Shown here in pieces: positions 2,460 through 46,635 of a stretch of 53,352 bases of DNA. This DNA is from a virus (Duplodnaviria; Caudoviricetes), in the IMG/VR virus record IMGVR_UViG_3300009548_000008, positions 1-53,352 of that record; one strand, given 5' to 3'. Within the stretch, counting starts at the first letter, position 1. Each line of letters starts with the position of its first letter. Below the pieces are notes generated by a model. That model was not told where the DNA came from. It was given only the letters and a program-made list of their open reading frames with translations, and ran no database searches. The translations under genes and the position numbers were made by a program.

Positions 2460-2842
2460 CCATCGGTACATTACCATGGGAAGAGATCGGGCGCGATATC
2501 GACCGTGTGATTCACGATCTCTATGGAGAGAAAAAATACCGGTTTGCCAAGATCGGTGAGATCGCCGAAGTGCTGATCGCGGATCCCGGGCGGTATCCGG
2601 ATTTCCACGGACAGGACGCCCCGGTATCCACAAGGACAGCATTTGCGCGGATCAACCATATGCTCGGTGTTGTCCGCAAGTGGAAGGTATATTCCCGGTC
2701 GTTCCGGTCGGTGTACCTGATTCCCGAGGGATATTTCGAGACCGCAACAAAAGGAGGATCCCGCCATGCCAATCCAAGGGTGGCTGCCCGGAAAGTGTTC
2801 CCAGTGCAGCGAACGGACGTACCGGCGGTGCCGGCTACTTGA
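2456..2842 (+). CDS. Hypothetical protein
   Basis: ATGA coupling to upstream ORF. Confidence 0.55.
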   Translation: MTIGTLPWEEIGRDIDRVIHDLYGEKKYRFAKIGEIAEVLIADPGRYPDFHGQDAPVSTRTAFARINHMLGVVRKWKVYSRSFRSVYLIPEGYFETATKGGSRHANPRVAARKVFPVQRTDVPAVPAT

Positions 2843-2859
2843 AAAGGAGGGTGAACCAA

Positions 2860-3537
2860 ATGCAAAAATCAAAAATTGAATGGACAGACGCGACATATAA
2901 CCCGGTCACCGGATGCCTGCATGGGTGCCCGTACTGCTATGCCCGGAAAATAGCCGAGCGATTCCACGGGCCGGCTGGGTTTATTCCGGCATTTCACCCG
3001 GAGCGGTTGCAGGATCCCGGGAAGATGAAAAAACCACAGACGATCTTTGTGTGTAGCATGGCGGATCTTTTCGGGGAATGGGCGCCGGATTCATGGATCG
3101 ATATGGTGTTTGCCGAGATCCAGAAAGCCAAACAGCATACCTACATATTCCTGACGAAAAATCCCAGCCGGTATCAGAAAATCCCGGGCACATACCTCTC
3201 ACAAAATACGTGGTGGGGAACAACAGTGACTGGGGTAAATGACATCGACAGGATCCACGAGCTTCAGTGCCTGCCGGGATACGCGAACAAATTCGTCTCG
3301 TTTGAGCCATTGCTATGGGGAATGCCGCACCTTGACCTGACCGGTATCAAGCAGGTGATCATCGGTGCACAGACCAATCCCGATCATTATGTGGGCCTCG
3401 AATGGGTTCTAAATATCTGCGAGGCAGCAGACCGCGTTGGTGCCAAGGTATTTATGAAAGACAGTCTTTCAGGAAAGTGGCCAGATCGGGAATTGCGCCG
3501 GGAACTGGCATGGCCGATCCACAAAAAGGTGGCATGA
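2860..3537 (+). CDS. Phage gp37/gp68-family (DUF5131) radical-SAM-like protein
   Basis: SKIEWTDATYNPVTGCLHGCPYCYA (CxxxCxxC), IFVCSMADLFG, FLTKNP, FVSFEPLL; AGGAGG RBS. Confidence 0.9.
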   Translation: MQKSKIEWTDATYNPVTGCLHGCPYCYARKIAERFHGPAGFIPAFHPERLQDPGKMKKPQTIFVCSMADLFGEWAPDSWIDMVFAEIQKAKQHTYIFLTKNPSRYQKIPGTYLSQNTWWGTTVTGVNDIDRIHELQCLPGYANKFVSFEPLLWGMPHLDLTGIKQVIIGAQTNPDHYVGLEWVLNICEAADRVGAKVFMKDSLSGKWPDRELRRELAWPIHKKVA

Positions 3538-9304: not shown

Positions 9305-9937
9305 GTGACCGGCACCACAACCACGTTACAGGCGGCAACCCGCCAGATGTGGGAACGGCAGGAAGGAGAAAGCGCAAAAGCGTGGAATGCATTCCGGCTG
9401 TATAGAGATATGGAGCCCACCGAGCGCAGCATTGCCAAGATTGCTGCAAAGTTGGGGTATTCCGCCCCGGTGCTCTGCGAACGGTGGTCGATGCGGAATA
9501 ACTGGGTCGCCCGGGCCTTGGCATACGATGAATACACCGATTTACAGGCACGGAACCGCAGGGAACGCGAACGTCTCGCCGCCAGCGACCGGCGGATCCA
9601 GATCGCCAAGAACATGCAGCTCGTAGGCGGCGCGGCCATCCAGGATCTCGGCAAGAAGATCCAGGACGCGCTCCGGAGTGGTAAAGCCATCCCGAAGATC
9701 TCCCTCAAGGACGCCACCGCGATCATCAACGCGGGTGTCCAGATCGAACGGCTCGAAAGTGGAGAATCCACCGCGAACCTAGCCGTTGAGGGCACGATCC
9801 GGATCGAGGATGTAATGAAACGCGAACGCGAACTTATGGATATCATCAAGGAGGCGATCCGTGCAGAAGCCGATCCCGAGACCACACGGCGCATCATCGG
9901 GTACATTGAATCCCGCTGCGCTGCCCAGCGTGACTGA
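9305..9937 (+). CDS. terS: Terminase small subunit (HTH type)
   Basis: WERQEGESAKAWNAFRLYRDM..RSIAK...ERWS..NNWVARALAYD; immediately upstream of TerL. Confidence 0.75.
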   Translation: MTGTTTTLQAATRQMWERQEGESAKAWNAFRLYRDMEPTERSIAKIAAKLGYSAPVLCERWSMRNNWVARALAYDEYTDLQARNRRERERLAASDRRIQIAKNMQLVGGAAIQDLGKKIQDALRSGKAIPKISLKDATAIINAGVQIERLESGESTANLAVEGTIRIEDVMKRERELMDIIKEAIRAEADPETTRRIIGYIESRCAAQRD

Positions 9938-11561
9938 CAACCTCCGGCAGGAATTTGTCGGGAGTTTCAAGTCCACCCGTAACGTAGTCGACATCATCAC
10001 GTTCGCGGAGGATCCCGCGTATCTCGGGGAACGATTATACCCCCGGCAGAAAGAGATCTTCCGGGAATTTTACGACCCGACAAAATCATGGGAAGAACTG
10101 CTTTTGATCTGCGGCCGGGACTCCACGAAGACCTTCATGGCGTCAATCATCGCCTGCTATACCGCGTATCTTTGGGAAGAGATCCCGGATCCCTATTGGC
10201 TCTATCAGGGCCGGGTGAGCCGCGATAAAGAGGTTTCAATCCCCTGTATAGCGAAGAAACAGGAGCAGGCCGGTATCCTGTTCGATGAAATCAAAGCCAA
10301 GATATCCCGGAGCCCATACTTCAAGGGCAAGACCGTCCGGATCAACAGCCTCGATATCGAGCTCACGAAGAAACTCCGAATAGAGGCCGTCACCAGCAAC
10401 TCCGCGTCAGAAGTCGGAAAGACCGCGCTTGCGGTCCTCTTTGACGAGCTGGGGAAGTACGGGACCGAGAAGGGCACCCGGGACGGTGAGGAAGTCTATG
10501 ACACCATGAAACCGTCCGTGGGCCGGTTTGCCTCCAACCGGCTGGAGTTCCTTAAGCGGTGCGCGGGCGACGCTAACCTTGAGATGATCGTGCGGTTCCT
10601 CGGCCGGGTAATCAGCATCACAACGCCCATGGCCGAGCAGGGGATCCTCTGGCGGCTGTTCTCACAATGGGAGACTGACAAGCGCAATCAGATCCCCACC
10701 ACACTCCTGCTGTACAAGCGGCCAACGTGGGAGATGAACCCCAACTACTCTTTCGACTCGTCGTTCATCAAAGAGGAGATGCGCACCAACCCGTCATTCT
10801 GGCGTGAGTGGGGCGCTGAGTTCGAGAAAGCGCTTGATGCGATGTTCAAACCGGAACTTATCGATTCCTGCATTGCCAAGATGAAGGCCGCGATCGATCC
10901 TGGGATGATTGACTATACCTCAGCGATCGATACCTCCAAGACAAAAGACGCGTTCGCGTTCTGCATCGGTCATATGCTGGCCGGCCGGGTGATCATCGAC
11001 GAGATCCGGTACTGGATCAGCGAGGATGGCCACCGGCACAACTGGGCCCAGATTGAACACGACGTCCGGCTGCTCTGCATGCAGTACCGGGTTGAACAGA
11101 TCGCCCACGATGGATTCGAAAGCGAAGGCGTGCGGCTTCATTTCCATAATTTCCTGCTGGACGAGACGGTATTCACGCTGCAGTATAAGATGGACATCTA
11201 CGACTGCCTTGAGAAACGGCTCTATAACCATGAGATCGAGTATCCGGGCCACCCCCGGCTGCTGGCCGAACTCAAGGCGCTGCAGCGCAAATGGAACGGC
11301 GACAAGTTCACCGTGCACCATCCCGCGATCGGCCCAGTCACCAACGATGACGGTCCCGACGTAGTGGCAAACGTGGCATACCGTTTGTATAACCATTACG
11401 TCACGACCCGGGAGGGCATCAACGACGAGATCCGGACCACGGACAGTATCGAATGGCCGGACGACCGGCGATATCTTGACGCGGATTCCATGGGGCATCT
11501 TGCGCAACGGTTTCCCTCAATGATCTCGTCCGGGCAGGACCACATGGAAGGGGGCGAGTAA
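9930..11561 (+). CDS. terL: Terminase large subunit
   Basis: LYPRQ, Walker A variant GRDSTKT, Walker B VLFDE, ITTP coupling motif, nuclease AIDTSKTKDAF and C-terminal NDDGPD. Confidence 0.9.
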   Translation: MTDNLRQEFVGSFKSTRNVVDIITFAEDPAYLGERLYPRQKEIFREFYDPTKSWEELLLICGRDSTKTFMASIIACYTAYLWEEIPDPYWLYQGRVSRDKEVSIPCIAKKQEQAGILFDEIKAKISRSPYFKGKTVRINSLDIELTKKLRIEAVTSNSASEVGKTALAVLFDELGKYGTEKGTRDGEEVYDTMKPSVGRFASNRLEFLKRCAGDANLEMIVRFLGRVISITTPMAEQGILWRLFSQWETDKRNQIPTTLLLYKRPTWEMNPNYSFDSSFIKEEMRTNPSFWREWGAEFEKALDAMFKPELIDSCIAKMKAAIDPGMIDYTSAIDTSKTKDAFAFCIGHMLAGRVIIDEIRYWISEDGHRHNWAQIEHDVRLLCMQYRVEQIAHDGFESEGVRLHFHNFLLDETVFTLQYKMDIYDCLEKRLYNHEIEYPGHPRLLAELKALQRKWNGDKFTVHHPAIGPVTNDDGPDVVANVAYRLYNHYVTTREGINDEIRTTDSIEWPDDRRYLDADSMGHLAQRFPSMISSGQDHMEGGE

Positions 11562-11759
11562 GTGCCGATCATCATCGAGGGCAGCCTGGAAGATTGTATC
11601 GAGAAAGCCCGGCAGATATCCGCCGATATTGAGGATAATGTGAGATGGAAAATCGTCATGGAGCCGATCTTTGCCACCCATTACCGATGTTTTGAACCAA
11701 GAAGAAGGCCTCGTTTAAGATTAATAAAACGGATTAAGGTAAGTGATACTCATGGTTAA
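11562..11759 (+). CDS. Small hypothetical protein
   Basis: Fills the gap between TerL and portal. Confidence 0.45.
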   Translation: MPIIIEGSLEDCIEKARQISADIEDNVRWKIVMEPIFATHYRCFEPRRRPRLRLIKRIKVSDTHG

Positions 11760-13641
11760 GCTCATTCCCCCCCAGCTCGTCAACTTTTTCTCATCCCGGA
11801 AACCCGATGAGGACACCCCGGCCGAGAACGCCCTTTCGGATGCCGATGTCAGGGATTATGTTGGCATCATGTCCGAGATGGTCCCGCTCGGTGCCGCCGA
11901 CCTGACAACGGACTTCACACAGTACCCCTCGCAGCGTCAGCCCGACGGGTACATCAACAAGGCGCTTGATTCAGACGTGTATGGCGGCCGCAAGATCTCA
12001 TATATCAACCGTTTCGACCGCTTCGAGCAGCTTGAGCAGGTCAGCCCCCGGGTATCCATGGGACTGTCGAAGTTGGGTTTGAAACTCCGCGGATCCGAGT
12101 TCAAACTCTATATCGCTATCGATGCCGCGTTGACGGACGAGATCAAGCACGGCATGTTACAGGATGGCCAGCAGTTCGTTGAGAATCTGGGACTACAGGA
12201 ACATTTCGCCGCAGCCGGCCGACTCACGGGACGGGATGGCACCGTGCCAATCCTGAATACCTCCGACAAGCGCGCCGGAAATGGGGAAGGCATCACGAAA
12301 CTTGACTATATCCCGATGAGCCACTGCACCCTGCTCCCCCGGGACGTGCAGCCCATGAGCGGCTTCCAGAACATCGAGCAGTTGTGGGAATACGGCACCA
12401 TCCTTGGCGAAGTCACGCAGTGCATCATCAACGAGCGCATGATGGCAAAACGTGAGATCCATTACCTCAAAAACGGCCGCATCACCCTGATCCGGTTCAT
12501 GCACCAAGGATACGGGTGCCGGGACATCTACCAGCGGCGCACCAAAGGCATCTACGGGATCTCGCTGATGGATCAGCTGGACGTTCCCGCGATCAAACCC
12601 CTGTGCGATATCATCTGGGGATACAGCAAAGCCATCGGCCGGTACGGGTTCGGCCGGCTCCATATCGAGAACGAGATGCTTGCCAAGATGGTAGAGGCAA
12701 AACTGCTCACGCCCAAACAGGCCGCCAATATTGCCGCGATGGAACAGAAGGTACTCAACACGCTTGAGCCCAACCGGGATATCCTCACGATCGGTAAGAC
12801 CGTCAAGGAAGTCGCGGGCACCTTCGGGGCATCCGAGGGGATCCTTGCATTCAAGGAATCGCTCGAACGGGATATCTCGTACGTGCTCTGCGAGACCGAA
12901 GCCGGCAGCGGCAAAGCCCGGGGCACCACCTTCGCGTCTGCCTCTTCTGCGGACAGCGACAATAACCGCGTGCTCGAAGCCATGCGGAACCAGATCCGGG
13001 ACGCCTTCGAGTCGATCATCCAGCGGCATCTCACGCTGATTGGATGGGCCGCAGCGGACGCTATGGCCGTCAAGATCGACCTCGCGCCCATTGAACTCCC
13101 CCCCATGGAGATCCAGGCGCTCCTCCAGTATAACGCTCAGGCACTCCCGCAGGACCAGCTCACCCGGGATCAGCTCTTTGAGATGTGCGGTTGGCACCTG
13201 CCTCCGCTGCCTTCTGTGGGGAACGAGAATATCGGGCAGCCCAACCCGGCGCAGCCACCCGAGACGCCCGGGAATGGCGAACCGCTTGTCCCGGGCCTCA
13301 CCCAGCAGGAAAAACCCACATTCTACCTGACCTCAAAAGGCCGGTGTTATCTCACGGCCGCCGGGATGCACAAGAGACGCGGGGAGGGCCTCGGCCTTAA
13401 ACTCGCAGCGGGCCGGTACAAAAAGACCCGTGAAGGTACGATGATCAATCTGTATGGCGCGAACGTCATGGTCCTAAATGGGGATACTGAAGAGGAATCG
13501 TTCGAGCGCCAGACCGGGATCACGCTCGAAGAGGCCGCGGAACTGGCCCAGAAGGAAAAGGATTTCGAGAAATCTACCGGTGGATGGGACGCGGCAATCC
13601 AGCGGCTCTACATGAGCCACGGCAATAAAGGGCCGGTGTGA
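11752..13641 (+). CDS. Portal protein with C-terminal extension
   Basis: Position after TerL, size, and GIYGISLMD portal-like motif. Confidence 0.75.
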   Translation: MVKLIPPQLVNFFSSRKPDEDTPAENALSDADVRDYVGIMSEMVPLGAADLTTDFTQYPSQRQPDGYINKALDSDVYGGRKISYINRFDRFEQLEQVSPRVSMGLSKLGLKLRGSEFKLYIAIDAALTDEIKHGMLQDGQQFVENLGLQEHFAAAGRLTGRDGTVPILNTSDKRAGNGEGITKLDYIPMSHCTLLPRDVQPMSGFQNIEQLWEYGTILGEVTQCIINERMMAKREIHYLKNGRITLIRFMHQGYGCRDIYQRRTKGIYGISLMDQLDVPAIKPLCDIIWGYSKAIGRYGFGRLHIENEMLAKMVEAKLLTPKQAANIAAMEQKVLNTLEPNRDILTIGKTVKEVAGTFGASEGILAFKESLERDISYVLCETEAGSGKARGTTFASASSADSDNNRVLEAMRNQIRDAFESIIQRHLTLIGWAAADAMAVKIDLAPIELPPMEIQALLQYNAQALPQDQLTRDQLFEMCGWHLPPLPSVGNENIGQPNPAQPPETPGNGEPLVPGLTQQEKPTFYLTSKGRCYLTAAGMHKRRGEGLGLKLAAGRYKKTREGTMINLYGANVMVLNGDTEEESFERQTGITLEEAAELAQKEKDFEKSTGGWDAAIQRLYMSHGNKGPV

Positions 13642-13653
13642 GGATACACGATC

Positions 13654-14058
13654 ATGCCTATCGCTCTCACAAAAGGACTTAACCAGCAATGTGCTTACTG
13701 TGGGATTGCTATTAAGGACGAGGAGATCGCGGGGCAGATAGACGGCCAGTATGTCGATTACCTCAAGCACCGAACGGGAGTTATTGATCGGATGCTATTC
13801 TGTTCGGGGTGCTGGGAGCACATCGAGCTGAGTAACAAATCCAATCTGGGTGACGCCATCCTTAAGCGCAAAGAGCTGGAGGCAGAAGGCGCGAAGACGG
13901 AGCCGATCGTGCTGGATCTCACCAAAGCCGAACCATCGCCACTCGCCACCAAAGAACAGTCCGATCACATCCTTGAGAGCGTACAGGCCGATCAGGATTA
14001 CTTGAAAGAGCATCCGCTGGATTTCACGGCGCCGGAGCATGTGGGGACGGGTATCTGA
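13654..14058 (+). CDS. Zinc-finger hypothetical protein
   Basis: CAYC...FCSGC. Confidence 0.6.
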   Translation: MPIALTKGLNQQCAYCGIAIKDEEIAGQIDGQYVDYLKHRTGVIDRMLFCSGCWEHIELSNKSNLGDAILKRKELEAEGAKTEPIVLDLTKAEPSPLATKEQSDHILESVQADQDYLKEHPLDFTAPEHVGTGI

Positions 14059-14414
14059 TGACCAACACCGGAGATTATCAGGCAGACTGGTTCGGCAAAC
14101 CCGTCTATCATATCGCGCAGACGCAGAACAAGATCGTCCGGGTGAAACCCGAAGCCGCAGATCTCTTTTACGCAGATGAAATCAACAGCGGCCGGCATAT
14201 CGCGGAACTACAAATCGCGTACCGTGGACTCAAGTATCTCGGAGGTAAAGAGGTACCCGTGCTCGGGACCATCATGGACGGAAATAAGATGCCCGCGCAT
14301 ATCGTCCCGATCGTGCCCACCCTGTATCTTCCCGGCGGGACGTTCTGCCGGCGTGCGTTTGTGGCGGCACAATATACCGAGCGGGTTACAGACGGATTCA
14401 TGGAGGCATCATGA
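14058..14414 (+). CDS. Hypothetical protein
   Basis: TGATG coupling. Confidence 0.55.
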   Translation: MTNTGDYQADWFGKPVYHIAQTQNKIVRVKPEAADLFYADEINSGRHIAELQIAYRGLKYLGGKEVPVLGTIMDGNKMPAHIVPIVPTLYLPGGTFCRRAFVAAQYTERVTDGFMEAS

Positions 14415-14563
14415 TTGAACTCTGTATTAATTGTGGGTACCGTTCGCGGATCCATATATGCCTGAATCCCCAGTCTCCTTTTTTTAACCAGTATGCAGGA
14501 AACACGTGCCGGGAATGGAAACCGCAGGTACACACCCCGGATGAATGGAGTAAGTGGAAATGA
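14411..14563 (+). CDS. Small Cys-rich protein
   Basis: MIELCINCGY...ICLNPQSPFF...TCREWK; ATGA overlaps at both ends. Confidence 0.5.
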   Translation: MIELCINCGYRSRIHICLNPQSPFFNQYAGNTCREWKPQVHTPDEWSKWK

Positions 14564-14856
14564 TACCCGAAACCATCAGGATAGGCGGCTATGACGTGAA
14601 GATTGAATACGTGAACAACATGATCCCAGACTCAGCGGCATACGGCCAGTACATCCCCCGTATGAAAACAATCCAGTTAGATCCCGGCGTTTGTGAGCAG
14701 CAGAAACATTCCACCTTCATTCACGAACTGCTTGAGGCCATTGTCGAGATCTACGAGCTGGATGCCCTGAAAGAAAACCATCATGAGATCGTGCTGCTCG
14801 GCGAGGCGTTGTACCAACTTCTGAAAGATAATCCCGGGGTGGTGCCGAGTGGATAA
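14560..14856 (+). CDS. Zincin-like small protein (HExxE variant)
   Basis: YGQY..RMKTIQLD......STFIHELLEAI, like ImmA/IrrE-fold phage proteins. Confidence 0.6.
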   Translation: MIPETIRIGGYDVKIEYVNNMIPDSAAYGQYIPRMKTIQLDPGVCEQQKHSTFIHELLEAIVEIYELDALKENHHEIVLLGEALYQLLKDNPGVVPSG

Positions 14857-14980
14857 GGATATCTCGGATCTTCTTGAAGAACCGGCGCCCGGAATCGAGC
14901 ATGAAACGCAGTGGCCGGCGTGGCCTACGGCGGGATACGTGAGATGGCTTGTGGGTGAACTAGATGGAGGGATTTACTAA

Positions 14981-15790
14981 ATGACAAAACGGATTTTACT
15001 TTTATCGGATCTTCATATCGGCTCAAAATGGGGGCTCTGGCCCCCAAATTTCAAGGCAGAGAGCGCACGGAGCGATCTGATCGAGGACTTCCCCCAGAAC
15101 GCGGTGAATGCGGCAATCTGGGACCACTGGAAGAAGATGCTCGCGGTACTGAAAAAAGAGAGACCGGACTGCATCATCCTCAATGGCGATCTCATCGAAG
15201 GCGCCCAGAAAAAGGAGGGCGGCCGGGGACTCGTCACTCCCGAACTTCTGATCCAGGTCAAAGCGTGTATCAAGATCCTGAAAACCCTGCCGAAAGTCCC
15301 GATGTATTTCACTGCAGGAACGGATTACCACCAGCTCCCGGATGGTATCAGTGCCGATACGTTCATCGCTCAGGAAATGGGTGCGGAGTTCGGTGACGAA
15401 CTTGTCATTGAGGAATGCGGGTTACGGATCTTCGCACGGCATGTAATCGGCACCTCAACCTCAAGCTGGCAATATCTCACAACCGCACCCGCAAAAGAAC
15501 AGCTCCTCCTCTATCTCAACCGCTCACGTGAAAAATACGGGCCTATTGATGTCTGTGTATTCTCACACCGGCATGTATTCACCGCCGCCCAGTTCTTATC
15601 CGGTATCGCTGTCGTTACTCCTTGTTGGCAGGGAAAGACAGTTTTTGCTGTAAAAAAGGGCATCATAGGCACGCCGGATATTGGATGGGTTATGCTCCAC
15701 ACCGATGGCCCGCGAAAAATCTGTGTTGATACTACCGGCATACTCTCCGTAGTAAAACCCTGTAAAACCGTCGGGAGGGATCGACAATGA
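14981..15790 (+). CDS. Calcineurin-like metallophosphoesterase
   Basis: SDLHIG, ILNGDLIEG, GTDYH, ARH, SHRH motifs; GGAGG RBS. Confidence 0.85.
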   Translation: MTKRILLLSDLHIGSKWGLWPPNFKAESARSDLIEDFPQNAVNAAIWDHWKKMLAVLKKERPDCIILNGDLIEGAQKKEGGRGLVTPELLIQVKACIKILKTLPKVPMYFTAGTDYHQLPDGISADTFIAQEMGAEFGDELVIEECGLRIFARHVIGTSTSSWQYLTTAPAKEQLLLYLNRSREKYGPIDVCVFSHRHVFTAAQFLSGIAVVTPCWQGKTVFAVKKGIIGTPDIGWVMLHTDGPRKICVDTTGILSVVKPCKTVGRDRQ

Positions 15791-16044
15791 AAACAAAACG
15801 TGTTCCACATGGTTCACAATCTCAAAACAATACGATCATAATCCCCGAACTGGAAGAAGCCGCCCTCCATTATTCCCCCCGCGCAAAACCGTGGATACCT
15901 GGTGGCCGGGACGAACTTACCCTCAAGACATATTATGGCCGGGTCGATATCAAAGATCTCGCAAAAGCACTGAATCGCAGCATCCCCAGCATCAAGAATA
16001 AAGCAGTGGCGCTGGGTCTTCACGTCTGGGAGGCAAAGGCATGA
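15787..16044 (+). CDS. HTH DNA-binding protein
   Basis: W...DELTLKTYY....IKDLAKALNRSIPSIKNKAVALGL. Confidence 0.6.
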   Translation: MKTKRVPHGSQSQNNTIIIPELEEAALHYSPRAKPWIPGGRDELTLKTYYGRVDIKDLAKALNRSIPSIKNKAVALGLHVWEAKA

Positions 16045-16313
16045 TCCCAGGGCTCGGCAATATCCTCTCTTATCTTGTCGCCGGATTGGGTATACTCGGC
16101 GGACTGCTCAATATCAGCATGAACACCGGCACCCGGTTCAGGTCCTATGTGATCTGGTCAGCCGGGAATGGTGCCGGCAGCATTCTTTATTATCTGGCGT
16201 ACCTTGGCATTCTGGAAATTACCATTGGGTTTCTGGCATTACTGGCTATGAACCTGGTTTATACCGGTATCGACGTTGCCGGGTGCTGGAATACCCGGGG
16301 GGTGCCGGCATGA
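16041..16313 (+). CDS. Small 3-TM membrane protein (PnuC/YgjV-like half-transporter pattern)
   Basis: G..LN.......SYVIW..GN.....Y......LL..NLVY....GCW. Confidence 0.5.
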   Translation: MIPGLGNILSYLVAGLGILGGLLNISMNTGTRFRSYVIWSAGNGAGSILYYLAYLGILEITIGFLALLAMNLVYTGIDVAGCWNTRGVPA

Positions 16314-16540
16314 CCCAACCCGGCCCCACTCTCTCCGATGCAGCGAACCCACAGCGCCGGCTCCGGAAACTCAAAGAAAGCCGGGCGAATCTGATCGCCA
16401 TTATTCAGGAAAAAGAGGATTGCCTTGATATTATCGATGCAGAGATCGCAGACCTCGATGCGGCCCTGGTCAGCAATATCCCAGAGAGCTGGATAGAGCG
16501 GGCGATCTGGAAGGCAAGGAAATGGATCCGGGGGTGTTGA
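16310..16540 (+). CDS. Coiled-coil hypothetical protein
   Basis: ATGA coupling. Confidence 0.55.
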   Translation: MTQPGPTLSDAANPQRRLRKLKESRANLIAIIQEKEDCLDIIDAEIADLDAALVSNIPESWIERAIWKARKWIRGC

Positions 16541-16687
16541 AGGATTGACGGAAGATCTCGGATCGCTCGTGGTATCGATCCGGTGCCGGTCAGTCCCCGA
16601 ACCCCGCAAGAATCGCATACGCCTTGATATCCAGTCGGGCCGCGCCGGGAGCAGTCTGATTGTTGAGGCAGCCGGGAAGGTGCATGA

Positions 16688-18205
16688 ATGAAGCAGGCGG
16701 TTTTTGTTGAGCACACGCCCGGCGGAGGCCCGGGGTACCTTGATCTCTTGTTTGGCGATAAGGGTATCGGGACCACAACCGTACAGGCGCACAAGAGCGG
16801 CATTACCGGCACCGAGAAGGCCGATTTCCTTATCCTCATGGGTTCGGATCAACCCGTCAAAAAGATGCCGTGGTACGATGTGGAGATCCAACTGATCCAA
16901 CAGCATCTCCAACTCAAAAAACCGATCATGGGTGTATGCGCGGGCGCCGAACTCATTGCGCTCGCAAAAGGCGGAAAATTAATCCGACTCAAACACCGCG
17001 AGTATGGCTGGACGCCTGTAACGAGCCCCTTAGGATCCTCGTGGGTATTTGAGTGGCACGAGGACGCATTCAAAACACCCGCGGGAGCGCACGAGATCGT
17101 TACCGGCGCCGACGGCGGGATGTGTCAGGCATACCGGGGCCCCGGATATCTCGGCACGCAGTTCCATCCCGAGATGACTGCCCGGATCCTGGACGACTGG
17201 ACTAACAAGGATCCCGCCGTATCTGCAACCGCGAGCCACGAGAACGCCCTGCGGTTATTATCGTCGCAGAGACTCGCGGGGTATCTGGTCAATCTCCTCG
17301 TAGGCCCCAAATGCGCTTGCGGGGCCGGGCATCATCCCCACGTGATCGCCCGACCGTATGGCGGCGCGAACCTCGATCTGAACCGGAAAGAATACCTGAT
17401 GGCCCGGGTCCTGCAGGACGCGCTTGAGCAGATCGCCCGGAGGATCAACGATCAGGCCGGATCCGCCCGGGAAGCGCTCGCAGGGTTTGATACCGCTCGC
17501 AGGGATGTAACGGGGCCGGCATTCCGCACGCAGATCGAGCACCACGTCCAGCAGACCGTCCAGATGGGCACCGAGAACGCCCAGCGGTTGCTTGTCGCCG
17601 CCCGGGAGCGGCAATGGCACCGCCGGCATGGAGCGGCCGGTAAGAAATCGACGCCTTTTGTCCCCCCGCTGCCGTCCGTGTCGCCCCAGCTGATGACTCC
17701 TTGGAGTAAACTCGTCAAGGGGATCACCGATCATACCGTGCAACATTTCGACCGGATCGCGGATGATTTTAAAGACCGGCTCACGGACACGCTCAAGGAT
17801 GGATACCAGAACGGCGAGAGTGCGGCACAACTGGGTACTCGGGTGAAGGAAGCGCTCGGTGTGGATAGGAACCGGGCGAATGAGCGAGCGCGGACAATGA
17901 CGATAGAAACGTACAACCAAGCCCATATTATCCAGTATCAGGAAGCCGGGGCCTCTGGTGTGGAATGGAGTGCAGCAGAAGATGAGCGCGAATGTGACTA
18001 CTGCGCGGATCTCGATGGCTCAGTATGGGCGCTTGATGATCCGGACCTTATCCGGCCTCCCGCCCATTCCAACTGTAGGTGTGTACTCTTACCGGTGCTT
18101 GACGATATCCCCGACGATGCCCCGCAACCCTCGCAGGACACGGTTGATTTCTGCCAAGATTGGCGCGAGAACTATTTCGATATCCCGCTTTACGCCCCAT
18201 CCTAA
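16688..18205 (+). CDS. Fusion of a class I glutamine amidotransferase-like domain and a MuF/SPP1 gp7 minor head protein
   Basis: N-half: PIMGVCAGAELIA, EYGW, FEWHED, GTQFHPE (Cys-His-Glu triad); C-half: RARTMT..TYNQA, VEWSAAEDERECDYC..LDG, PPAHSNCRC. Confidence 0.85.
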   Translation: MKQAVFVEHTPGGGPGYLDLLFGDKGIGTTTVQAHKSGITGTEKADFLILMGSDQPVKKMPWYDVEIQLIQQHLQLKKPIMGVCAGAELIALAKGGKLIRLKHREYGWTPVTSPLGSSWVFEWHEDAFKTPAGAHEIVTGADGGMCQAYRGPGYLGTQFHPEMTARILDDWTNKDPAVSATASHENALRLLSSQRLAGYLVNLLVGPKCACGAGHHPHVIARPYGGANLDLNRKEYLMARVLQDALEQIARRINDQAGSAREALAGFDTARRDVTGPAFRTQIEHHVQQTVQMGTENAQRLLVAARERQWHRRHGAAGKKSTPFVPPLPSVSPQLMTPWSKLVKGITDHTVQHFDRIADDFKDRLTDTLKDGYQNGESAAQLGTRVKEALGVDRNRANERARTMTIETYNQAHIIQYQEAGASGVEWSAAEDERECDYCADLDGSVWALDDPDLIRPPAHSNCRCVLLPVLDDIPDDAPQPSQDTVDFCQDWRENYFDIPLYAPS

Positions 18206-18238
18206 AACATTTATACTTTTTATACCACATATTATACT
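18205..18238 (+). promoter_or_regulatory. BRE/TATA-like promoter (AAAACATTTATA), probably leaderless
   Basis: TTTATA about 25 nt upstream of ATG 18239; the same AAAACATTTAT precedes ATG 37969. Confidence 0.5.
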
Positions 18239-18466
18239 ATGCCAAAAAAACCAAGCGAAGATCCTGCGGTGAGCCTGAATGTCACCGTGCGGCAGAGTGT
18301 TTTTAACCGGATAGAAAAAGCCCGGGGTCCGGTCAAGCGGTCAACATGGGTCGAGATGGCCTGCGAAGAGAAGTTGAACAATATCAGCGCGATCACCAAA
18401 CTGGTGGCTGCCGGGAAACTTACGGCAGCGCAGGCCCAGAGATTGCTTGAAATGAAGGTGTCATGA
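18239..18466 (+). CDS. Ribbon-helix-helix DNA-binding protein
   Basis: SLNVTVRQSVFNRIEKARGPVKRSTWVEMACEEKL. Confidence 0.65.
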   Translation: MPKKPSEDPAVSLNVTVRQSVFNRIEKARGPVKRSTWVEMACEEKLNNISAITKLVAAGKLTAAQAQRLLEMKVS

Positions 18467-19404: not shown

Positions 19405-19419
19405 GGACCGGTGATCTCC

Positions 19420-21801
19420 ATGCAGTCTCTTGGTGACCGGCTGGTGATCCGGCCATGGAGGAAGTGGCAACTTGCAGCCATGGTATTGTTGATAATACTA
19501 ATCCTGTTTACCGGGTCAGTAAGTGCGATTGTACCATCCTATTATCTCGGTCAATATTCCCCATACCTCGTATCGGCAATGAATTTTAATAGTTCCACCC
19601 TCACAGTGGACGATACCGGATATACTACATGGACTAATAGCGGGGGGGTAGAGAATACAACAACCCCAAAATTCGGAGCCGGTGCTGCGTACTTTGGAAC
19701 AGGCCGCACAAATTATATTTATGGCAATGCAAACTCAAATCTCGCATTTGGAACAAACCCATTCACTATAGACTTCTGGTATAACACATCTGCGCCGGCT
19801 ACGCCACAAACCATTTACGATTGGAGGGCAGCATCGGGGAGTGGTGCATACTCAACCATTTACATATCAGCAGGTTCTGTATTGTGTTACTATGTTAATT
19901 CGGCATTCAAAATTGTTGGCGGGACGACTGTAACTGCAAATGTGTGGCATGAAATCATCGTTGAAAGAAGCGGTACTACAACTACAATGTATTTGGATGG
20001 GGTTTCGCAAGGCTCATGGACTGATTCTACAAGTTATCTCGTGGGAGCAAGTGCCCCGGTTTTGGGGAATGGGGCTGCTCGTGGAACTATATGTATAATC
20101 GGATCAATTGATTCGGCATTTGTATGGAATGGTGTAGCCATTCCTATCACTCAATTGTACCCGCAGACACAGGAAATTGGGGTTGCGGCATTACCTGTTA
20201 CCATTACTGCGAATACTACATCCGGTGCTATCCCCCTCGCTGTCCAATTTACTGATACAAGCGGCTGGCCAAATCCCGGTAATGCCGGATTGACGAGTTA
20301 TTCATATTCTATCAATAATAATACTCAGGTTTTTATTAATGGAACAAATTTTGCGAACGAGAATATTACCTATACATTCCCGGTCGCAGGAACCTATCAG
20401 GTAAATCTCACTCTGACAAATAACGCCCTGTTATCGAATACGAGCGCGAATACTACGATCACGGTATCTGGTGTACTACCCGTAGCAGCGTTTACTATGA
20501 ATACAACAGCCGGGTATTCACCTCTTGCCGTGAGTTTCACGGATACCTCGAATCCCGTCGGGACCGCGTGGCAATGGGGATTCAACAACGTCACCGGCAA
20601 CAACACATGGACGAATTTTGCCACGGCAGAAAACCCGGTCTGGACGTTCGGTATCGGCAACTATTCAGTAAACCTGACGGCAACCAATTCCGGTGGGTCC
20701 AGTAAATTCACGAATACGACGTTCATAAACGTGACAGCTGTTCCACCCGTAGCAGCGTTTACTATGAATACAACAGCCGGGTATTCACCCCTTGCCGTGA
20801 GTTTCACGGATACCTCGAATCCCGTCGGGACCGCGTGGCAATGGGGATTTAACAACGTCACCGGCAACAACACGTGGACGAATTTTGCCACGACGGAGAA
20901 CCCGGTCTGGACGTTCGGGATCGGCAATTATTCAGTAAACCTGACGGCAACCAATTCCGGTGGGTCCAGCAAATTCACGAATACGACGTTCATAAACGTG
21001 ACAGCTGTTCCACCCGTTGCATCGTTCACGGTTTCTCCAATATCTGGTATTCCCCCGCTTGGAATTTCGTTGAATGATACTTCTACAAATACTCCAACAT
21101 CATGGTCATGGGGCGCGAAAAACGTCACCGGGAATAATACATGGATACCTATCGGAAATAGATTACAGAATGATGTGGCGATGCTCGGCTCCGGGAACTG
21201 GTCGATTAATCTCACTGCTGCAAATTCCGGCGGGTCAAATATCTCGACACAGATCTCATTTGTCAATGTCTCAGGAATTGTACCGTTGCCAATCGGGAAC
21301 TTCACCGAGAATGGATTATATACCCAGACTTCTGGCAATGCACCATTCCCCGTGCAGTTCAATTATGTGCAATCTAATGGGACAACTTCGTGGTTCTGGA
21401 TGTTTGGCGATGGCAGCACCTCAACCGATCAGAATCCACTGCATACCTATACCGTGGCAGGGATCTATACCGTGAATCACTCGGTAACCAACTCATTCGG
21501 GACCGGATGGACGAACCGGACCGGGGCAGTAATGGCGATCATGGTATCAATGTTCACCCCATGGCCGGGGCCGGTTACCCGGTGGTACCCGGCTGGTGTC
21601 TATTTCCAGGACCAGAGTGCCGGTTCACCGACGAGCGTAAACTGGTCCTTCGGTGACGGCACGATCGCAAACCTGACGACTGCGATCTATCACCAGTTCC
21701 CCCACTCGGCAGCGTCGCAGGTATATACCATCACAGAAACGGCCTGCACCGCGTCAGCGTGTTCGACCAATTCCTCGATCGTACAAATCCATCCCACCTA
21801 A
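19420..21801 (+). CDS. Secreted LamG/ConA-like plus multi-PKD-domain adhesin (signal peptide, no C-terminal anchor)
   Basis: Basic and hydrophobic N-terminus ending VSA; FTIDFW...WHEIIVERSGTTTTMYLDG (LamG); WMFGDG...NPLHTYTVAGIYTV (PKD); about 38 NxS/T sequons by hand count. Confidence 0.85.
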   Translation: MQSLGDRLVIRPWRKWQLAAMVLLIILILFTGSVSAIVPSYYLGQYSPYLVSAMNFNSSTLTVDDTGYTTWTNSGGVENTTTPKFGAGAAYFGTGRTNYIYGNANSNLAFGTNPFTIDFWYNTSAPATPQTIYDWRAASGSGAYSTIYISAGSVLCYYVNSAFKIVGGTTVTANVWHEIIVERSGTTTTMYLDGVSQGSWTDSTSYLVGASAPVLGNGAARGTICIIGSIDSAFVWNGVAIPITQLYPQTQEIGVAALPVTITANTTSGAIPLAVQFTDTSGWPNPGNAGLTSYSYSINNNTQVFINGTNFANENITYTFPVAGTYQVNLTLTNNALLSNTSANTTITVSGVLPVAAFTMNTTAGYSPLAVSFTDTSNPVGTAWQWGFNNVTGNNTWTNFATAENPVWTFGIGNYSVNLTATNSGGSSKFTNTTFINVTAVPPVAAFTMNTTAGYSPLAVSFTDTSNPVGTAWQWGFNNVTGNNTWTNFATTENPVWTFGIGNYSVNLTATNSGGSSKFTNTTFINVTAVPPVASFTVSPISGIPPLGISLNDTSTNTPTSWSWGAKNVTGNNTWIPIGNRLQNDVAMLGSGNWSINLTAANSGGSNISTQISFVNVSGIVPLPIGNFTENGLYTQTSGNAPFPVQFNYVQSNGTTSWFWMFGDGSTSTDQNPLHTYTVAGIYTVNHSVTNSFGTGWTNRTGAVMAIMVSMFTPWPGPVTRWYPAGVYFQDQSAGSPTSVNWSFGDGTIANLTTAIYHQFPHSAASQVYTITETACTASACSTNSSIVQIHPT
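20478..21017 (+). repeat. 267-bp tandem duplication of one PKD domain (2 copies)
   Basis: Copies start at 20478 and 20745; about 9 mismatches, only one amino-acid change (A/T). Confidence 0.95.
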
Positions 21802-25088: not shown

Positions 25089-26105
25089 ATGCCAACCGAT
25101 CTTTCAACACTCTATCCTGAATTTACAAACCTGATCATCCAGACGTACTTCTTCTGGTTGTACGATATCTGGGTGCAGCCCGACTGGGCTAAGGTCACGC
25201 AGATCGTCCCGTCCACCAAGGACGCCGAGTTCTACCCGACCCTCACGCAGGTACCCCGCATGAGTCTGTGGGAAGGCCGCAGGCGGTTCGAGCGGGCCGG
25301 CGCCAAGCAGTCCTACATGGTCATGAACGCCATGTACGATGCCGGTATCTCGTTCCCCCGCACGGTCTTCGCGGACGACCAGTACGGGATCCTCATGAAG
25401 AAGATCTCGGACCTTGCGGTTGAGGGGAAGCGTATGCCCATGGAGCTCGCGTACAACATCATCAACAACGGCGCGATCTCCTCGACCACCAACGCCAATT
25501 ACGCCGTTGGTATCGACGGCCTGCCGCTCTTCTCACAGAGCCACCCGGGTGCAGTCGATAACGCTTCTCTCGCGCAGACGCAGAGCAACTATGTCGGCAC
25601 CGGGAATACCAATCCCCTGACAATCAACAACCTCAATACCGCGATTGCCGCGATGAAGAACTTCATCGACAATCAGGGAAGGCCCCTGTGGATCGTGCCC
25701 GATACGCTCATTGTGCCGCCCATCCAGGGAATGCTTGCCCGGCAGATCCTGCACTCGACATGGCTGATGTCTGTCGGTCCGGGTGGATCCAGCGGTACGC
25801 CCACCACCGCTACCACAAACATCCCGACCTTCAACGTGTTCAACGTTGACGCTGGCGGAGATCTCAAGACCATCATCGAGACCCCGTACATATCGGATGT
25901 GAACGCGTGGTATCTGGCCTGCACGACCCGCGTGGCAAAACCCGTCCTGTTACAGGAGAGGATGCCGCCCGAGCTCACCGTCAAGATGGACCCGAACACG
26001 TCCGATCTGGTCTTCCAGACCAACGACATCTACTGTTCCATCATGGCCCGGTGGGGCGCAGCGCCCGGTGACTGGCACACAATCTATCAGGGCAACGCCA
26101 CGTAG
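25089..26105 (+). CDS. Major capsid protein, Mu gpT-like (HK97 fold)
   Basis: VPST...E.YP.L..VPRM..WEG, DDQYG, DGLPLFSQSHP, AMKNF.D.QGRPL.I.PDTLIVPP, AWYL, KPVLLQER. Confidence 0.9.
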   Translation: MPTDLSTLYPEFTNLIIQTYFFWLYDIWVQPDWAKVTQIVPSTKDAEFYPTLTQVPRMSLWEGRRRFERAGAKQSYMVMNAMYDAGISFPRTVFADDQYGILMKKISDLAVEGKRMPMELAYNIINNGAISSTTNANYAVGIDGLPLFSQSHPGAVDNASLAQTQSNYVGTGNTNPLTINNLNTAIAAMKNFIDNQGRPLWIVPDTLIVPPIQGMLARQILHSTWLMSVGPGGSSGTPTTATTNIPTFNVFNVDAGGDLKTIIETPYISDVNAWYLACTTRVAKPVLLQERMPPELTVKMDPNTSDLVFQTNDIYCSIMARWGAAPGDWHTIYQGNAT

Positions 26106-29791: not shown

Positions 29792-29933
29792 ATACGGGAA
29801 ATTGTGGGCGGTGTTCCTGCGCTGGATGAAACTCACATGGAAGGAATGGGGAGCGATGGACGAGATCGAACGAGAATTCTGGCTTGCGGCGTATAACGGG
29901 CTTTATGGCCCACCGAAGGACGGGAAGAAATGA
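29778..29933 (+). CDS. +1-frame extension of the tail chaperone (gpT-like)
   Basis: FSVSEYGKLWAVFLRWMKLTWKEWGAMDEIEREFWLAAYNGLYGPPKDGKK*; ends in ATGA overlap with the tape measure gene. Confidence 0.7.
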   Translation, partial: FSVSEYGKLWAVFLRWMKLTWKEWGAMDEIEREFWLAAYNGLYGPPKDGKK

Positions 29934-31252
29934 CTGATACCGACTTGGGAAACGTGTTCTATAATATCACGGCAAATGATCAGACTAGTGGCACGTTAGC
30001 TGGTGCGGCTCAAAACTTCTATTTCATGTTTAATTCCATTAGGGAAGGCGTTTCCATGGTACAAACGGCGTTTGACGATACCGTCGGCGCCGCCATGGAT
30101 TATGAAGATTCGATCGAACACCTTTCGATCACCACGAATACTTCCTTTGATGACGTGCAGCGGTGGAAAGAAGCCGCCACCTCCATGGGTGTAGATTTTG
30201 ATGCGTTTTCAAGCACCATGACCATGATGACGCAGAAGATCGGTGCGCAGGGAACAGCGGGTGATGACCTCCGGCAGCGCATTGAGGCTCTTGGTGTGTC
30301 GGTTATAGACGCCAACGGGAATTACCGCTCAACATCAGATATAATGCAGGATCTACTTCCTGCGCTCTCCAATGTTGGAGATGCCCAAACACGGGATGCG
30401 GACGCTCTTGCCATTTTCGGAAGATCGTGGCAGAACATCGCCCCGATGATCGACGATGGGACCACAGCCGTGAATAATTTCAAAGCGGCGTCGCCCGTGA
30501 TGAGTGATGAGGACGCCCAGAAGGTCCAGAACTTCCGGATCGAATGGGGAATCCTTTCGGAGAGATTTGAGATTTTCCAAGACACCGTCGGCACCTACAT
30601 TATTGCGTTTTTCCAAGATGTGGCTCAAGCCGGAGCAGTTGCGGGCGTCGAAATTTCCTCGTTAGGAATGGCGCTTGATGGTGTCGAGGAATATATCAAA
30701 ACCGGCAACATGGCGGAGCTAACAAACGCCATGGATCGCATTTCAAATCCGGGCAAATATACAACGAATTTCCTCGATACCACCACGGTGGCGCTTCATC
30801 AGGCCACTACAAGCACATCCGGGGCAGTAGAGACCGCAAAACAGCAGGAAGAGGCCCAGAAAAAAGTGGAGGAGGCTCAAACAAAAGCCGAAAAGGCAAG
30901 TGCAGAGGATCAGAAAAAAGCCGATGCACACACAGCCACTCAGACGAAACTCGCGCAGACTATTGAAGATAACTCCCAAAAACTTGAAAATCTCGAGGGA
31001 GAAACCACAAAAACCGCAACCGCTTCGGCGGATCTTGCATTACGAATTACAGAACTTAAACAGAAAATTAATGATGAAATCAATTCCTACAACAAGAACG
31101 CTACAACGATATATGTCACGGTCACGCCCCCGGCCGGCAGTTCTCCCACAGAGGTAGGTACTGCAGTAGGATCGGCCATCAACGATCAGCTGGCCGACAC
31201 CGCGAACCTCCGCACGCAGCGGATCGCTATGGGAATCGGGGGGAACGATTAG
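29930..31252 (+). CDS. Tape measure protein (short, 440 aa)
   Basis: ITANDQTSG N-terminus, LGVSVIDANGNYRS, ALAIFGRS; helical and Ala-rich. Confidence 0.85.
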   Translation: MTDTDLGNVFYNITANDQTSGTLAGAAQNFYFMFNSIREGVSMVQTAFDDTVGAAMDYEDSIEHLSITTNTSFDDVQRWKEAATSMGVDFDAFSSTMTMMTQKIGAQGTAGDDLRQRIEALGVSVIDANGNYRSTSDIMQDLLPALSNVGDAQTRDADALAIFGRSWQNIAPMIDDGTTAVNNFKAASPVMSDEDAQKVQNFRIEWGILSERFEIFQDTVGTYIIAFFQDVAQAGAVAGVEISSLGMALDGVEEYIKTGNMAELTNAMDRISNPGKYTTNFLDTTTVALHQATTSTSGAVETAKQQEEAQKKVEEAQTKAEKASAEDQKKADAHTATQTKLAQTIEDNSQKLENLEGETTKTATASADLALRITELKQKINDEINSYNKNATTIYVTVTPPAGSSPTEVGTAVGSAINDQLADTANLRTQRIAMGIGGND

Positions 31253-41270: not shown

Positions 41271-41870
41271 ATGGATCGAGGAATACAAAAAACAACCGGG
41301 ATCACATTGCGATTTCCTCCCAGTATCCCGGAGAAACCATACAATCATCTCTATGATCGAATGCATCAGGCCGGCCTCACGCTCCATCAGATGAGGATTT
41401 GCCAGCCCTATGGTGACGATCAGAGAAAAGGGCTCTGGTTGTTCCATATCATTGAACCGGAAACATGGTCAAAAGTTGTTGCCCGCGTCAATGGTGCGAA
41501 CCAGGGAGCGCTCTATGCGCAGGATTCCGGTGATATTCTCGGTGTTGGGAAAATTACCCGACCGCCGGGTCACACATGGGAAAGCTTCGCGCACCTCCTT
41601 TTAGAGTCGATGCCGGAAAAAACACGGGAACATTACGAGAACAAGATCGCCGTCTTCCTGCACTGGTATTCAGATCGGGGATATGGCAGGACAATTCCCG
41701 ATGAAGGCGAGATGACCAAAGACAAACCCAGCTGGAAACGAATATGCAAGGCACTCCTGAGAAACGATTATTGGTGCAAGGGACTTTCTTTCAGCCAAAA
41801 CAAACCGGTGGCGTATGCGAATTATGTTAAAGTGATGAAGAAACGGAGGGAAAAATGGGGGATATTTTAG
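41271..41870 (+). pseudogene. ibrA: 5'-truncated IbrA-like (PAPS reductase/DUF3440) gene; C-terminal part only
   Basis: YNHLYDRMHQAG...MRICQPYGDDQRKGL...PSWKRICKALLRNDYWCKGLSF; the N-terminal SGGKDS domain is absent. Confidence 0.7.
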
Positions 41871-42373
41871 AGTGGACAAAGGAGCACCCGGTATCTCATG
41901 TGCAGTGGGTACCGACTGAAAAGGTATTTGCAAACGATTACAATCCAAACACGGTTGCACCGCCTGAAATGAAACTCCTGAAAATCAGCATAGAATCTGA
42001 TGGTTTCACTCAGCCGATTGTTGTATGGGAACACGATGAAGGATATGAAGTCGTGGATGGGTTTCACCGGCATCTCGTGGGAAAACAATTGGGACTCACA
42101 CATCTTCCTGTGGTTGTAATCAATGGAAATCGCACCGAGAAAACAGATCGGATTGCCTCGACTATCCGGCATAACCGGGCGCGGGGAAAACATCAGGTTG
42201 CAGGTATGAGTGAGATCGTTCAGGAGTTGTCACGGCGTAATTGGTCAGAAGCAAAAATTGGGCGTGAACTTGGAATGGAACCAGACGAGGTATTGAGACT
42301 TAAACAAATCGGTGGTCTTGCTGAAATGTTTGCGGATAAAGAATTTTCAGAAGCTTGGGACGCTGAATTGTAA
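41855..42373 (+). CDS. ibrB: IbrB-like ParB-N domain protein
   Basis: ANDYNPNTVAPPEMKLL, GFTQPIV, VVDGFHR, STIRHNRARGKH, LGMEPDEVLRLKQ. Confidence 0.85.
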   Translation: MGDILEWTKEHPVSHVQWVPTEKVFANDYNPNTVAPPEMKLLKISIESDGFTQPIVVWEHDEGYEVVDGFHRHLVGKQLGLTHLPVVVINGNRTEKTDRIASTIRHNRARGKHQVAGMSEIVQELSRRNWSEAKIGRELGMEPDEVLRLKQIGGLAEMFADKEFSEAWDAEL

Positions 42374-45470: not shown

Positions 45471-45480
45471 AGGTGTACCG

Positions 45481-46014: not shown

Positions 46015-46019
46015 CAGCA

Positions 46020-46502: not shown

Positions 46503-46635
46503 GCCGATTGCACGAAATGAAGGTCCGCCGCGCCATGGATTCAAAAATGGTAAAACTTGCGGACAAAACAGAAGAAACGATGAAAGAGTGGGCGGAAAAA
46601 TCGGAGAATCCTGGCATCCGCATTCAGACGATGGT

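Follow-up and report, generated by a model that had tools for sequence, protein, structure and literature searches.

Why should the minor head protein of a tailed virus carry a domain of the glutamine amidotransferase (GATase) family at its N terminus? This question is raised by a gene on the + strand (16688..18205) of a linear IMG/VR virus record, IMGVR_UViG_3300009548_000008, the 53,352 bases of which are called the window hereafter; CheckV puts the completeness of the record at about 65%. The gene encodes 505 amino acids plus a stop in a single open reading frame (ORF) with no internal stop, and a class I GATase/peptidase C26-type domain is thereby joined to a MuF (SPP1 gp7-type) minor head module. 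Here, we confirm that GATase-MuF is one genuine gene with a real but rare architecture. As for its function, the proposal that the protein is a gamma-glutamyl or glutamine amidohydrolase, which would be packaged in the capsid and released together with the DNA, has in our judgment an even chance of being right.

The GATase-MuF gene and its assembly

The gene is preceded by a Shine–Dalgarno-like stretch read from the sequence, GGAAGGTG (16675-16682, + strand), 5 nt 5' of its ATG, and fused homologues begin at the residue equivalent to the start of the window protein (alignment A1). Residues 1-205 (16688..17302, +) form the GATase/C26-type domain by Pfam, NCBIfam, AlphaFold2 (AF2) and Foldseek; residues 206-228 (17303..17371, +) are a flexible linker, and residues 229-505 (17372..18205, +) make up the MuF module, the Pfam core of which lies at 17780-18088. 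Within the enzyme domain, the nucleophile Cys84 in GVCAGAE is encoded by TGC at 16937-16939 and Glu88, located at the Cys+4 position where most relatives have Gln, at 16949..16951, while TTC CAT CCC GAG at 17162-17173 encodes F159-H160-P161-E162, of which His160-Pro161-Glu162 (17165..17173) completes the triad; all are on the + strand and in frame. An earlier note, made from the letters of this DNA, had described one uninterrupted 505-residue ORF, an intact triad with these Cys and FHPE codons, and a CACGAGHHPH linker between the domains. All three descriptions are borne out by the ORF listing and the in-frame reading, with CACGAGHHPH corresponding to residues 213-222 (17324-17353). The MuF domain that it named is also present with its PPAHSNCRC stretch, but the protein does not end there as had been implied; namely, this stretch is residues 457-465, and the protein continues for 40 residues beyond it. 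The C-terminal end (residues 466-505) is conserved among the relatives that have MuF only (alignment A1).

Could the fusion simply be an artefact, in which an assembly or sequencing error has merged two separate genes, as the earlier note itself had considered? A near-identical copy of the stretch 16600-18300 is contained in 20 sequencing runs from 19 studies on peat, wetland and soil (2014-2025), 15 of which are possible sources of the window. We examined the junction in the Logan contigs of four of the five runs that are not marked as possible sources. The region 17290-17400 was found to be bridged, with 0 differences and 0 gaps, by contigs from three of them, X16 (16787-17612), X18 (16954-17456) and X20 (16985-17629); the contigs of the fourth run, X17, are interrupted at 17299 and 17346. 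Given these bridging contigs, the number of runs with the stretch and the fused homologues known at 40-64% identity, an artefact can be dismissed for practical purposes. The virus, furthermore, appears to be widespread and persistent in peat, wetland and soil.

Recurrence of the fusion and relatives with MuF only

When 5.8 billion proteins were searched, 13 relatives were obtained, three of which are full-length: P0001 (508 residues, 60% identity), P0002 (509 residues, 58%) and P0005 (488 residues, 40%), the last being found on 4 contigs. P0169, a 508-residue protein in the cluster of P0001, was found on 10 contigs, the longest of which has 50,655 bases. Another relative, P0004, represents only part of a fused protein, and its cluster includes P0176, a complete GATase-MuF protein of 830 residues with an intein, as well as P0179, the intein-free allele of P0176 that is a full-length fusion of 510 residues. 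The architecture search suggested in the earlier note has thus found GATase plus MuF in five 90%-identity clusters (the window, P0001, P0002, P0176/P0179 and P0005), by which the other possibility raised there, namely that the homologues are always split, is excluded. DNA copies of the P0005-type gene in the loci L002, L003 and L005 differ by only 0-1 codons.

Nonetheless, the architecture is rare. A HMMER search over 1.84 billion representatives returned 11,091 hits (E<=0.001), and among the best 150 of these 11,091 hits both domains were matched in one stretch only in P0002 and P0005. With tblastn, 69 of 50,697 annotated phage records were matched, none of them covering both domains, and no convincing two-domain match was obtained in BFVD. 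Scanning viral contigs with the single protein gave no match, and scanning them with the GATase alignment gave only the distant GATases L007 and L008 (22-25% identity); a scan of a single metagenome gave 2 loci.

By gene calls, we also noticed proteins with MuF only (P0006-P0010, 287-315 residues), which are 50-59% identical to the window protein over residues 219-505 and start exactly at the Cys/His-rich linker; P0006 and P0007 indeed open with the same Cys/His-rich stretch as the window linker. At L004 and L006, the two loci where the absence of the enzyme was checked on DNA, a MuF gene of 295 residues overlaps the portal gene by ATGA, and there is no GATase 5' of MuF. The genes for the terminase large subunit (TerL), portal, MuF, a 583-residue zinc-ribbon protein, a scaffold-like protein, the major capsid protein (MCP) and the neck are common to the window, the fused L002 and the unfused L004; they are 40-66% identical and syntenic in order. 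Judged from these gene contents, the head module is thus conserved apart from the enzyme, which is an optional addition to it.

The enzyme domain

The N-terminal domain was matched by Pfam GATase (PF00117; residues 43-166, E 4.6e-12, 46.4 bits against a cut-off of 22.8) and Peptidase_C26 (PF07722; residues 65-100, E 1.4e-7, 32 bits against a cut-off of 20.5). The best GATase model in NCBIfam, PRK07053 (NF005458), covered residues 1-189 with 81.6 bits and did not reach the equivalog cut-off of 250; by this score, the window protein is taken to lie outside the PRK07053 equivalog even though no other model matches it better. The full-length AF2 model, which was built on a 72-row alignment, has a mean predicted local distance difference test score (pLDDT) of 91.6 and a predicted template modeling score (pTM) of 0.73. 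It consists of two well-folded domains, with pLDDT mostly >90 over the GATase domain, and linker residues 212-221 alone fall below 50.

With Foldseek, the N-terminal domain matched 225 PDB chains at E<=0.001, the top of which was 1o1y (TM1158; E 9.8e-14, TMt 0.73), and phmmer against the PDB concurred. The matches include DnfC (8khs), 3m3p, MsGATase (7d54), SMU.1228c and GGP1 (9k7i-l); over TM1158, DnfC, 3m3p, MsGATase and GGP1, E ranged from 1e-13 to 1e-10 and TMt from 0.65 to 0.73. While the identity to the matched structures is just 18-26%, TM1158, DnfC, MsGATase and GGP1 share with the window domain the same fold, the same Cys-His-Glu triad and the lack of a fused synthase; they differ from it in having no fusion to a virion protein and, at the Cys+4 position, Gln instead of Glu.

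Cys84, His160 and Glu162 are each kept in 38 of the 38 domain-bearing rows of alignment A3, all 5 fused rows included, and the enzyme thus looks active, as judged from its sequence and model. The Cys+4 position is Gln in 25 of the 38 rows and Glu in 13, and the rows with Glu are all viral forms, the archaeal homologues, P0029, P0030 and P0123. The canonical Gln, a ligand of the substrate alpha-carboxylate, is hence absent from the window protein and Glu88 is there instead. In GGP1, the side chain of the corresponding Q104 hydrogen-bonds with the substrate alpha-carboxylate (PMC12958103). From Glu88 we infer an altered S1 pocket, which is a hint about the substrate only and suggests that the alpha-end of the substrate would be unlike that of free L-glutamine.

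As to the reaction, glutathione and its conjugates are split by GGP1 at the gamma-glutamyl bond, and a glutaminase activity is reported for MsGATase in the same paper (PMC12958103). More generally, the activities given for the nearest structures are those of glutaminase and the hydrolysis of gamma-glutamyl-hydroxamate or of the gamma-glutamyl bond in glutathione (PMC12958103, PMC11440038). None of the nearest characterized hydrolases (GGP1, MsGATase and DnfC) requires a fused synthase. Consistent with what the earlier note had stated, no synthase partner was matched among the 59 ORFs of the window at E<=0.001, with the record being about 65% complete.

We also considered a role in DNA modification (e.g., Gat-QueC-like), which was dropped; no QueC, TGT or DpdA-type match was found among the 59 ORFs of the window.

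The MuF module

The C-terminal half was matched by Phage_Mu_F (PF04233; residues 365-467, E 5e-19, 69.5 bits against a cut-off of 29.6), by TIGR01641 of NCBIfam (SPP1 gp7; E 1.2e-21, 77.2 bits against a cut-off of 39.65) and by about 20 PHROG families of head-morphogenesis or minor-head proteins. When modeled separately with AF2 (pLDDT 92.3, pTM 0.88), the module is composed of long helical hairpins and a small beta unit, and its matches in BFVD are viral minor capsid and head morphogenesis proteins. A solved MuF fold was not hit: phmmer against the PDB gave no match below E 0.4, Foldseek of the separate model gave 0 matches at E<=0.001, and the VIA-align wide search of the model gave generic helical bundles only (best Z 8.3). 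Co-folding of the portal (632 residues) with MuF residues 222-505 returned a score of 0.00, which is uninformative either way. The MuF core contains a C436-x2-C439 ... H460-x2-C463-R-C465 motif (17993..18082, +) that is unchanged in 9 of 9 rows in alignment A1, and we infer a metal-binding role of these Cys/His residues.

It may be added that the inteins of MuF homologues, which were recognized by the Pfam models Intein_splicing and Hint_2, sit exactly in the two invariant Cys motifs, while the window gene is intein-free. Namely, the intein is inserted between Cys and Arg of H-x-x-C|R-C in P0176/P0004 and P0011 (equivalent to 18074-18079 in the window) and at DEREC|DYC in P0012 (equivalent to 17993-17998).

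Cellular relatives and a clue to the host

When residues 1-210 were searched alone, ten stand-alone proteins were found (P0014-P0023, 195-230 residues), which are 58-62% identical over residues 3-206 and stop where the viral linker starts. The same gene is carried, at 60-61% identity, by four metagenome-assembled genomes in a species-level genome collection that are titled Methanomassiliicoccaceae or Methanomassiliicoccales archaeon (L009-L012). These stand-alone genes have the same triad and Glu88 as the window, but they are cellular and unfused, and their neighborhoods are neither viral nor conserved. Indeed, one locus has genes for fasciclin, HTH_10, a transposase fragment, radical SAM and TrkA, and another has TrmB, ferredoxin, ArsR, a thioredoxin-like protein and an ABC-2 transporter nearby. 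The GATase gene, 88-93% identical among the four, is the only gene common to these four different neighborhoods, and no partner synthase is conserved beside it in L009-L012. A close homologue occurs in 4 of 261 genomes of the order, and one further genome has a relative with 35% identity.

The stand-alone GATase behaves like a mobile accessory gene. To judge from these sequences, the enzyme subclade is a rare accessory gene shared by a few peat archaea and these viruses, with transfer conceivable in either direction. No MuF match was found in the four genomes with the cellular GATase; MuF matches do occur in 23 of the 261 genomes of the order, all at <=45% identity (<=35% if longer than 60 residues) and none close to the window.

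This kinship of the GATase is the only clue to the host, which would accordingly be a member of peat Methanomassiliicoccaceae. The order to which the family belongs is not known to have the methanofuran/tetrahydromethanopterin branch, which would make methanofuran an unlikely target of the enzyme. F420 and methanofuran, both of which had been put forward as possible substrates in the earlier note, are without support.

Origin of the fusion

The comparison with stand-alone GATases, also proposed earlier, was made in a tree of 35 rows: namely, 4 viral domains, two N-terminal parts taken from P0035 and P0041, 8 stand-alone proteins and 21 distant GATase-only representatives chosen from the top of the HMMER representative hits, with the N-terminally truncated P0018 and P0023 left out. 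In this tree, the viral domains of the window, P0001 and P0002 cluster as one clade (100/94), with the eight archaeal stand-alone genes as sister group (99/96), and the domain of P0005 is placed elsewhere, beside P0035 (94/86). The viral domains are hence not monophyletic; forcing the four together was 56.3 log-likelihood units worse (approximately unbiased (AU) test, p 1.05e-6), in a test made after viewing the tree on a group set by architecture. In a MuF tree of 19 rows, furthermore, P0005 groups with the unfused P0008/P0009 (88/95). A separate origin of the P0005 domain agrees with the identities of the individual parts, since P0005 is 33-34% identical to the other fusions in the GATase part and 53-57% identical in the MuF core. 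Two captures, or else a later replacement of the domain, are therefore the probable history as far as the trees and identities can tell. P0035 itself, the nearest relative of the P0005-type viral GATase domain, is a protein of 914 residues on a 60.5-kb contig with an N-terminal GATase and a C-terminal type IB topoisomerase (PF01028, PF21338). A word-based search with L002:5741-6355 for the donor of the P0005-type GATase gave no match at E<=1e-5 among 308 candidates.

Within the window clade, the GATase domain is 69-75% identical, as compared with 40-53% for the N-terminal helices of MuF and 56-75% for the MuF core. The putative enzyme is thus at least as conserved as MuF by these identities, which indicates purifying selection on it.

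Possible function of the fused protein

The protein may be regarded as a self-contained Cys-His-Glu amidohydrolase that is tethered to the N terminus of MuF by a flexible linker of about 20 residues. As in the case of SPP1 gp7, the MuF module would recruit it to the portal within the procapsid, and a few copies would be packaged per particle, in which the GATase-like domain would hang on the flexible linker within the capsid. At infection, the packaged copies would exit with the DNA, and the enzyme domain, with no need of a synthase partner, would hydrolyze an amide of the glutamine or gamma-glutamyl type early in the new host. The sequences show the gene, its domains, the intact and conserved triad, the recurrence of the fusion and the kinship to the cellular genes, whereas packaging, ejection, activity and substrate make up the proposed part of this scheme. 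Such a virion-delivered amidohydrolase would fit the published theme of MuF-effector fusions as well as the hydrolase activities of GGP1, MsGATase and DnfC. We also entertain a bolder scenario, speculative and rather doubtful on the present sequences: peat archaeal viruses would have joined a GATase-like hydrolase to the MuF N terminus at least twice and independently, implying strong selection to deliver the activity with the genome, and Glu88 would mark a gamma-glutamyl-type host metabolite, cofactor tail or defense molecule, not free glutamine, as the target.

Several points weigh against delivery with the genome and against the double joining. The cargos described for MuF are C-terminal, whereas packaging and ejection as supposed here would presume an N-terminal cargo. 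Close relatives do with MuF alone, so the enzyme is dispensable for head assembly. The substitution of Glu88 for the substrate-binding Gln could equally mean an altered or weakened activity. Finally, when the MuF tree is considered by itself, the five fused rows may still be one clade (not rejected; AU p 0.0765), and a single old fusion followed by fast divergence and repeated loss is a less probable but conceivable history.

Instead of being delivered, the enzyme might work late in the producing cell as an auxiliary metabolic or processing enzyme, for example as a glutaminase or, where virions are assembled, in processing one of their components or of those of the host, and the fusion to MuF would then only couple expression or location. 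The nearest relatives are indeed ordinary stand-alone cellular enzymes, stand-alone GATases of phages are classed as auxiliary metabolic genes (phrog_7218), and the relatives with MuF only tell that the enzyme is not structural. For a late cytoplasmic role, however, a free-standing gene would suffice, while the fusion to a low-copy head protein has been kept in five clusters and was possibly joined twice, an indication that selection acts on the physical linkage as such; we consider a role in the producing cell unlikely. Still less probable is a pseudoenzyme or binding module in which the fold is kept in order to bind a host protein, a metabolite or a capsid component. Glu88 in place of the canonical Gln and the low PRK07053 score relative to its cut-off speak for such a module, and virion-associated GAT pseudoenzymes are described for herpesviruses (PMC7605207). 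Yet the triad is complete in every row, including both viral lineages at 33% mutual identity, and Glu88 is a trait of the subclade, not a sign of viral decay, because the cellular homologues share it.

Another possibility, to which we give slightly less weight than to the pseudoenzyme, is that two products are made, namely the full-length protein and a MuF-only form from an internal start near GTG 17342 (Val219). Head assembly would then be served by the MuF-only form, and the enzyme would be present in just a few of the particles or copies. The MuF-only homologues begin exactly at the linker near Val219, and a 287-residue database entry, P0003, is identical to residues 219-505. This entry comes from a contig of 2,320 bases and keeps Val as its first residue; it is therefore probably a cut gene, not a mapped start, and no Shine–Dalgarno-like motif is seen 5' of 17342 in the sequence. 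Among the 22 runs listed for the stretch, none was an RNA run.

Relation to known systems

MuF is the best-known candidate for a carrier with which tailed phages would load enzymes into the capsid. The cargos on record come from bacterial phages and comprise C-terminal toxins as well as enzymes that act on nucleic acids or nucleotides. Zhang et al. in 2012 reportedly recognized MuF polymorphic toxins, or MuF-effector fusions, of phages. MuF has been proposed as a carrier of fused effector enzymes into the host (PMC5512222); the effector enzymes of MuF fusions are also proposed to be packaged in the head, and the cargos described are C-terminal (PMC5576092). The window gene resembles such fusions in that MuF is covalently joined to an enzyme and lies among late or head genes (PMC5576092, PMC5512222). 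The proposed logic, namely that a head-packaged enzyme would be freed with the DNA, is also the same.

The order is reversed, though; in the toxins of Jamet et al. 2017, MuF is N-terminal and a variable toxin is C-terminal (PMC5576092). The cargo in the window, furthermore, is a class I GATase/C26-type hydrolase unlike the toxin cargos, and the virus is archaeal. MuF toxins have a small immunity gene directly downstream. In the window, the ORF directly after MuF (75 residues, 18239-18466) has no Pfam or PHROG match and no counterpart in L002-L006, and a conserved immunity-like gene is thus not evident there.

SPP1 gp7 and phage Mu gpF share with the window the MuF module and the position 3' of the portal, but they are single-domain proteins; the window adds an enzyme of 205 residues as well as about 3 kb with seven small ORFs after the portal. 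Portal-MuF fusions (phrog_2662; P0089, P0120) are common and illustrate that a large N-terminal partner is tolerated by MuF, while that partner is the structural portal and not an enzyme as in the window. ChaoS9 has a class II GATase as a separate gene. Gammaherpesviruses belong to the HK97-capsid lineage, and their vGAT tegument proteins resemble the large FGARAT enzyme. With these proteins a GAT homologue is present in the virion (PMC7605207), from which we draw an analogy but no kinship. The vGATs are described as enzyme-deficient and as cooperating with a cellular GAT (PMC7605207); the window protein has a small domain with a complete triad.

In our literature searches, no description of a GATase-MuF fusion was found in print, and searches on Methanomassiliicoccales viruses likewise gave nothing relevant. 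The words "amidotransferase" and "GATase" do not occur in the available text of PMC5512222, nor does "amidotransferase" in that of PMC5576092, although the supplements of these papers could list such an architecture. A MuF protein carrying an enzyme is known as such; what is new is the cargo family, its N-terminal position and the setting in an archaeal virus, and a possible double origin would also be new.

The theme thereby comes to include archaeal viruses, a cargo at the N terminus and an amidohydrolase family, the stand-alone roles of which are mostly obscure. If the proposed delivery is true, it would be, to our knowledge, the first time that an enzyme effector delivered by the virion is described for viruses of methanogen-related archaea, and it would offer a handle on the function of a rare accessory enzyme shared by viruses and hosts. 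The pair of viral and host enzymes is indeed a tractable route to the function of the stand-alone "GATase." If the domains were truly joined twice, this would be unusually direct evidence that virion linkage is a selected trait. Also, a second question is opened, namely the delivery of metabolic enzymes at entry by viruses of methane-cycle archaea.

Neighboring genes in the window

Every sizeable gene of the window is on the + strand. The terminase small (TerS; 9305-9937) and large (TerL; 9861-11561) subunits were identified by PHROG (phrog_6299, phrog_2 and phrog_9), the MCP (25089..26105) is Mu gpT-like (PF10124, E 8e-38; phrog_371), and the neck and tape-measure proteins (29930-31252) and an MCM helicase (43191-45470) were recognized by PHROG/Pfam. 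The product of 11743..13641 (632 residues) had no Pfam or PHROG match; it is read as the portal because its language-model features score 0.96 to portal clusters and its predicted structure has TM ~0.5 to Portal_Mu clusters. It is also 52% and 47% identical to the product of the gene directly 5' of MuF in L002 and L004, respectively. With TerS, TerL, portal, MCP, neck and tape-measure identified, the GATase-MuF gene is placed by these predicted neighbors in the head module (TerS, TerL, portal ... MCP) of an archaeal-type tailed virus. No tRNA gene was found in the window by ARAGORN.

Between portal and MuF, the seven small ORFs (13654-16540, ~3 kb) have no equivalent in L004, where the interval contains none, and L002 has one ORF there. 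The interval codes for a metallophosphoesterase-like protein (14981-15790), a 71% homologue of which is found elsewhere in L003, and also for a D5-like HTH protein and a small hydrophobic protein. Downstream of MuF, a LamG/PKD protein of 796 residues (19411-21801), which has no counterpart in L002 or L004, precedes the zinc-ribbon protein; its PKD unit of about 90 residues is duplicated in tandem as near-identical copies, and a role of the protein in adhesion or in decorating the capsid is conceivable. The 583-residue double zinc ribbon protein (PF12773, PF13240; 21859-23610) is conserved in both L002 and L004 as part of their head modules (38-54% identity). Genes for replication and modification (2680-3537, 41271-42373 and 43191-48385) encode a DUF5131 protein, a pair of DUF3440 and ParB_N proteins, MCM, HNH endonuclease(s) and a C5 cytosine methylase.

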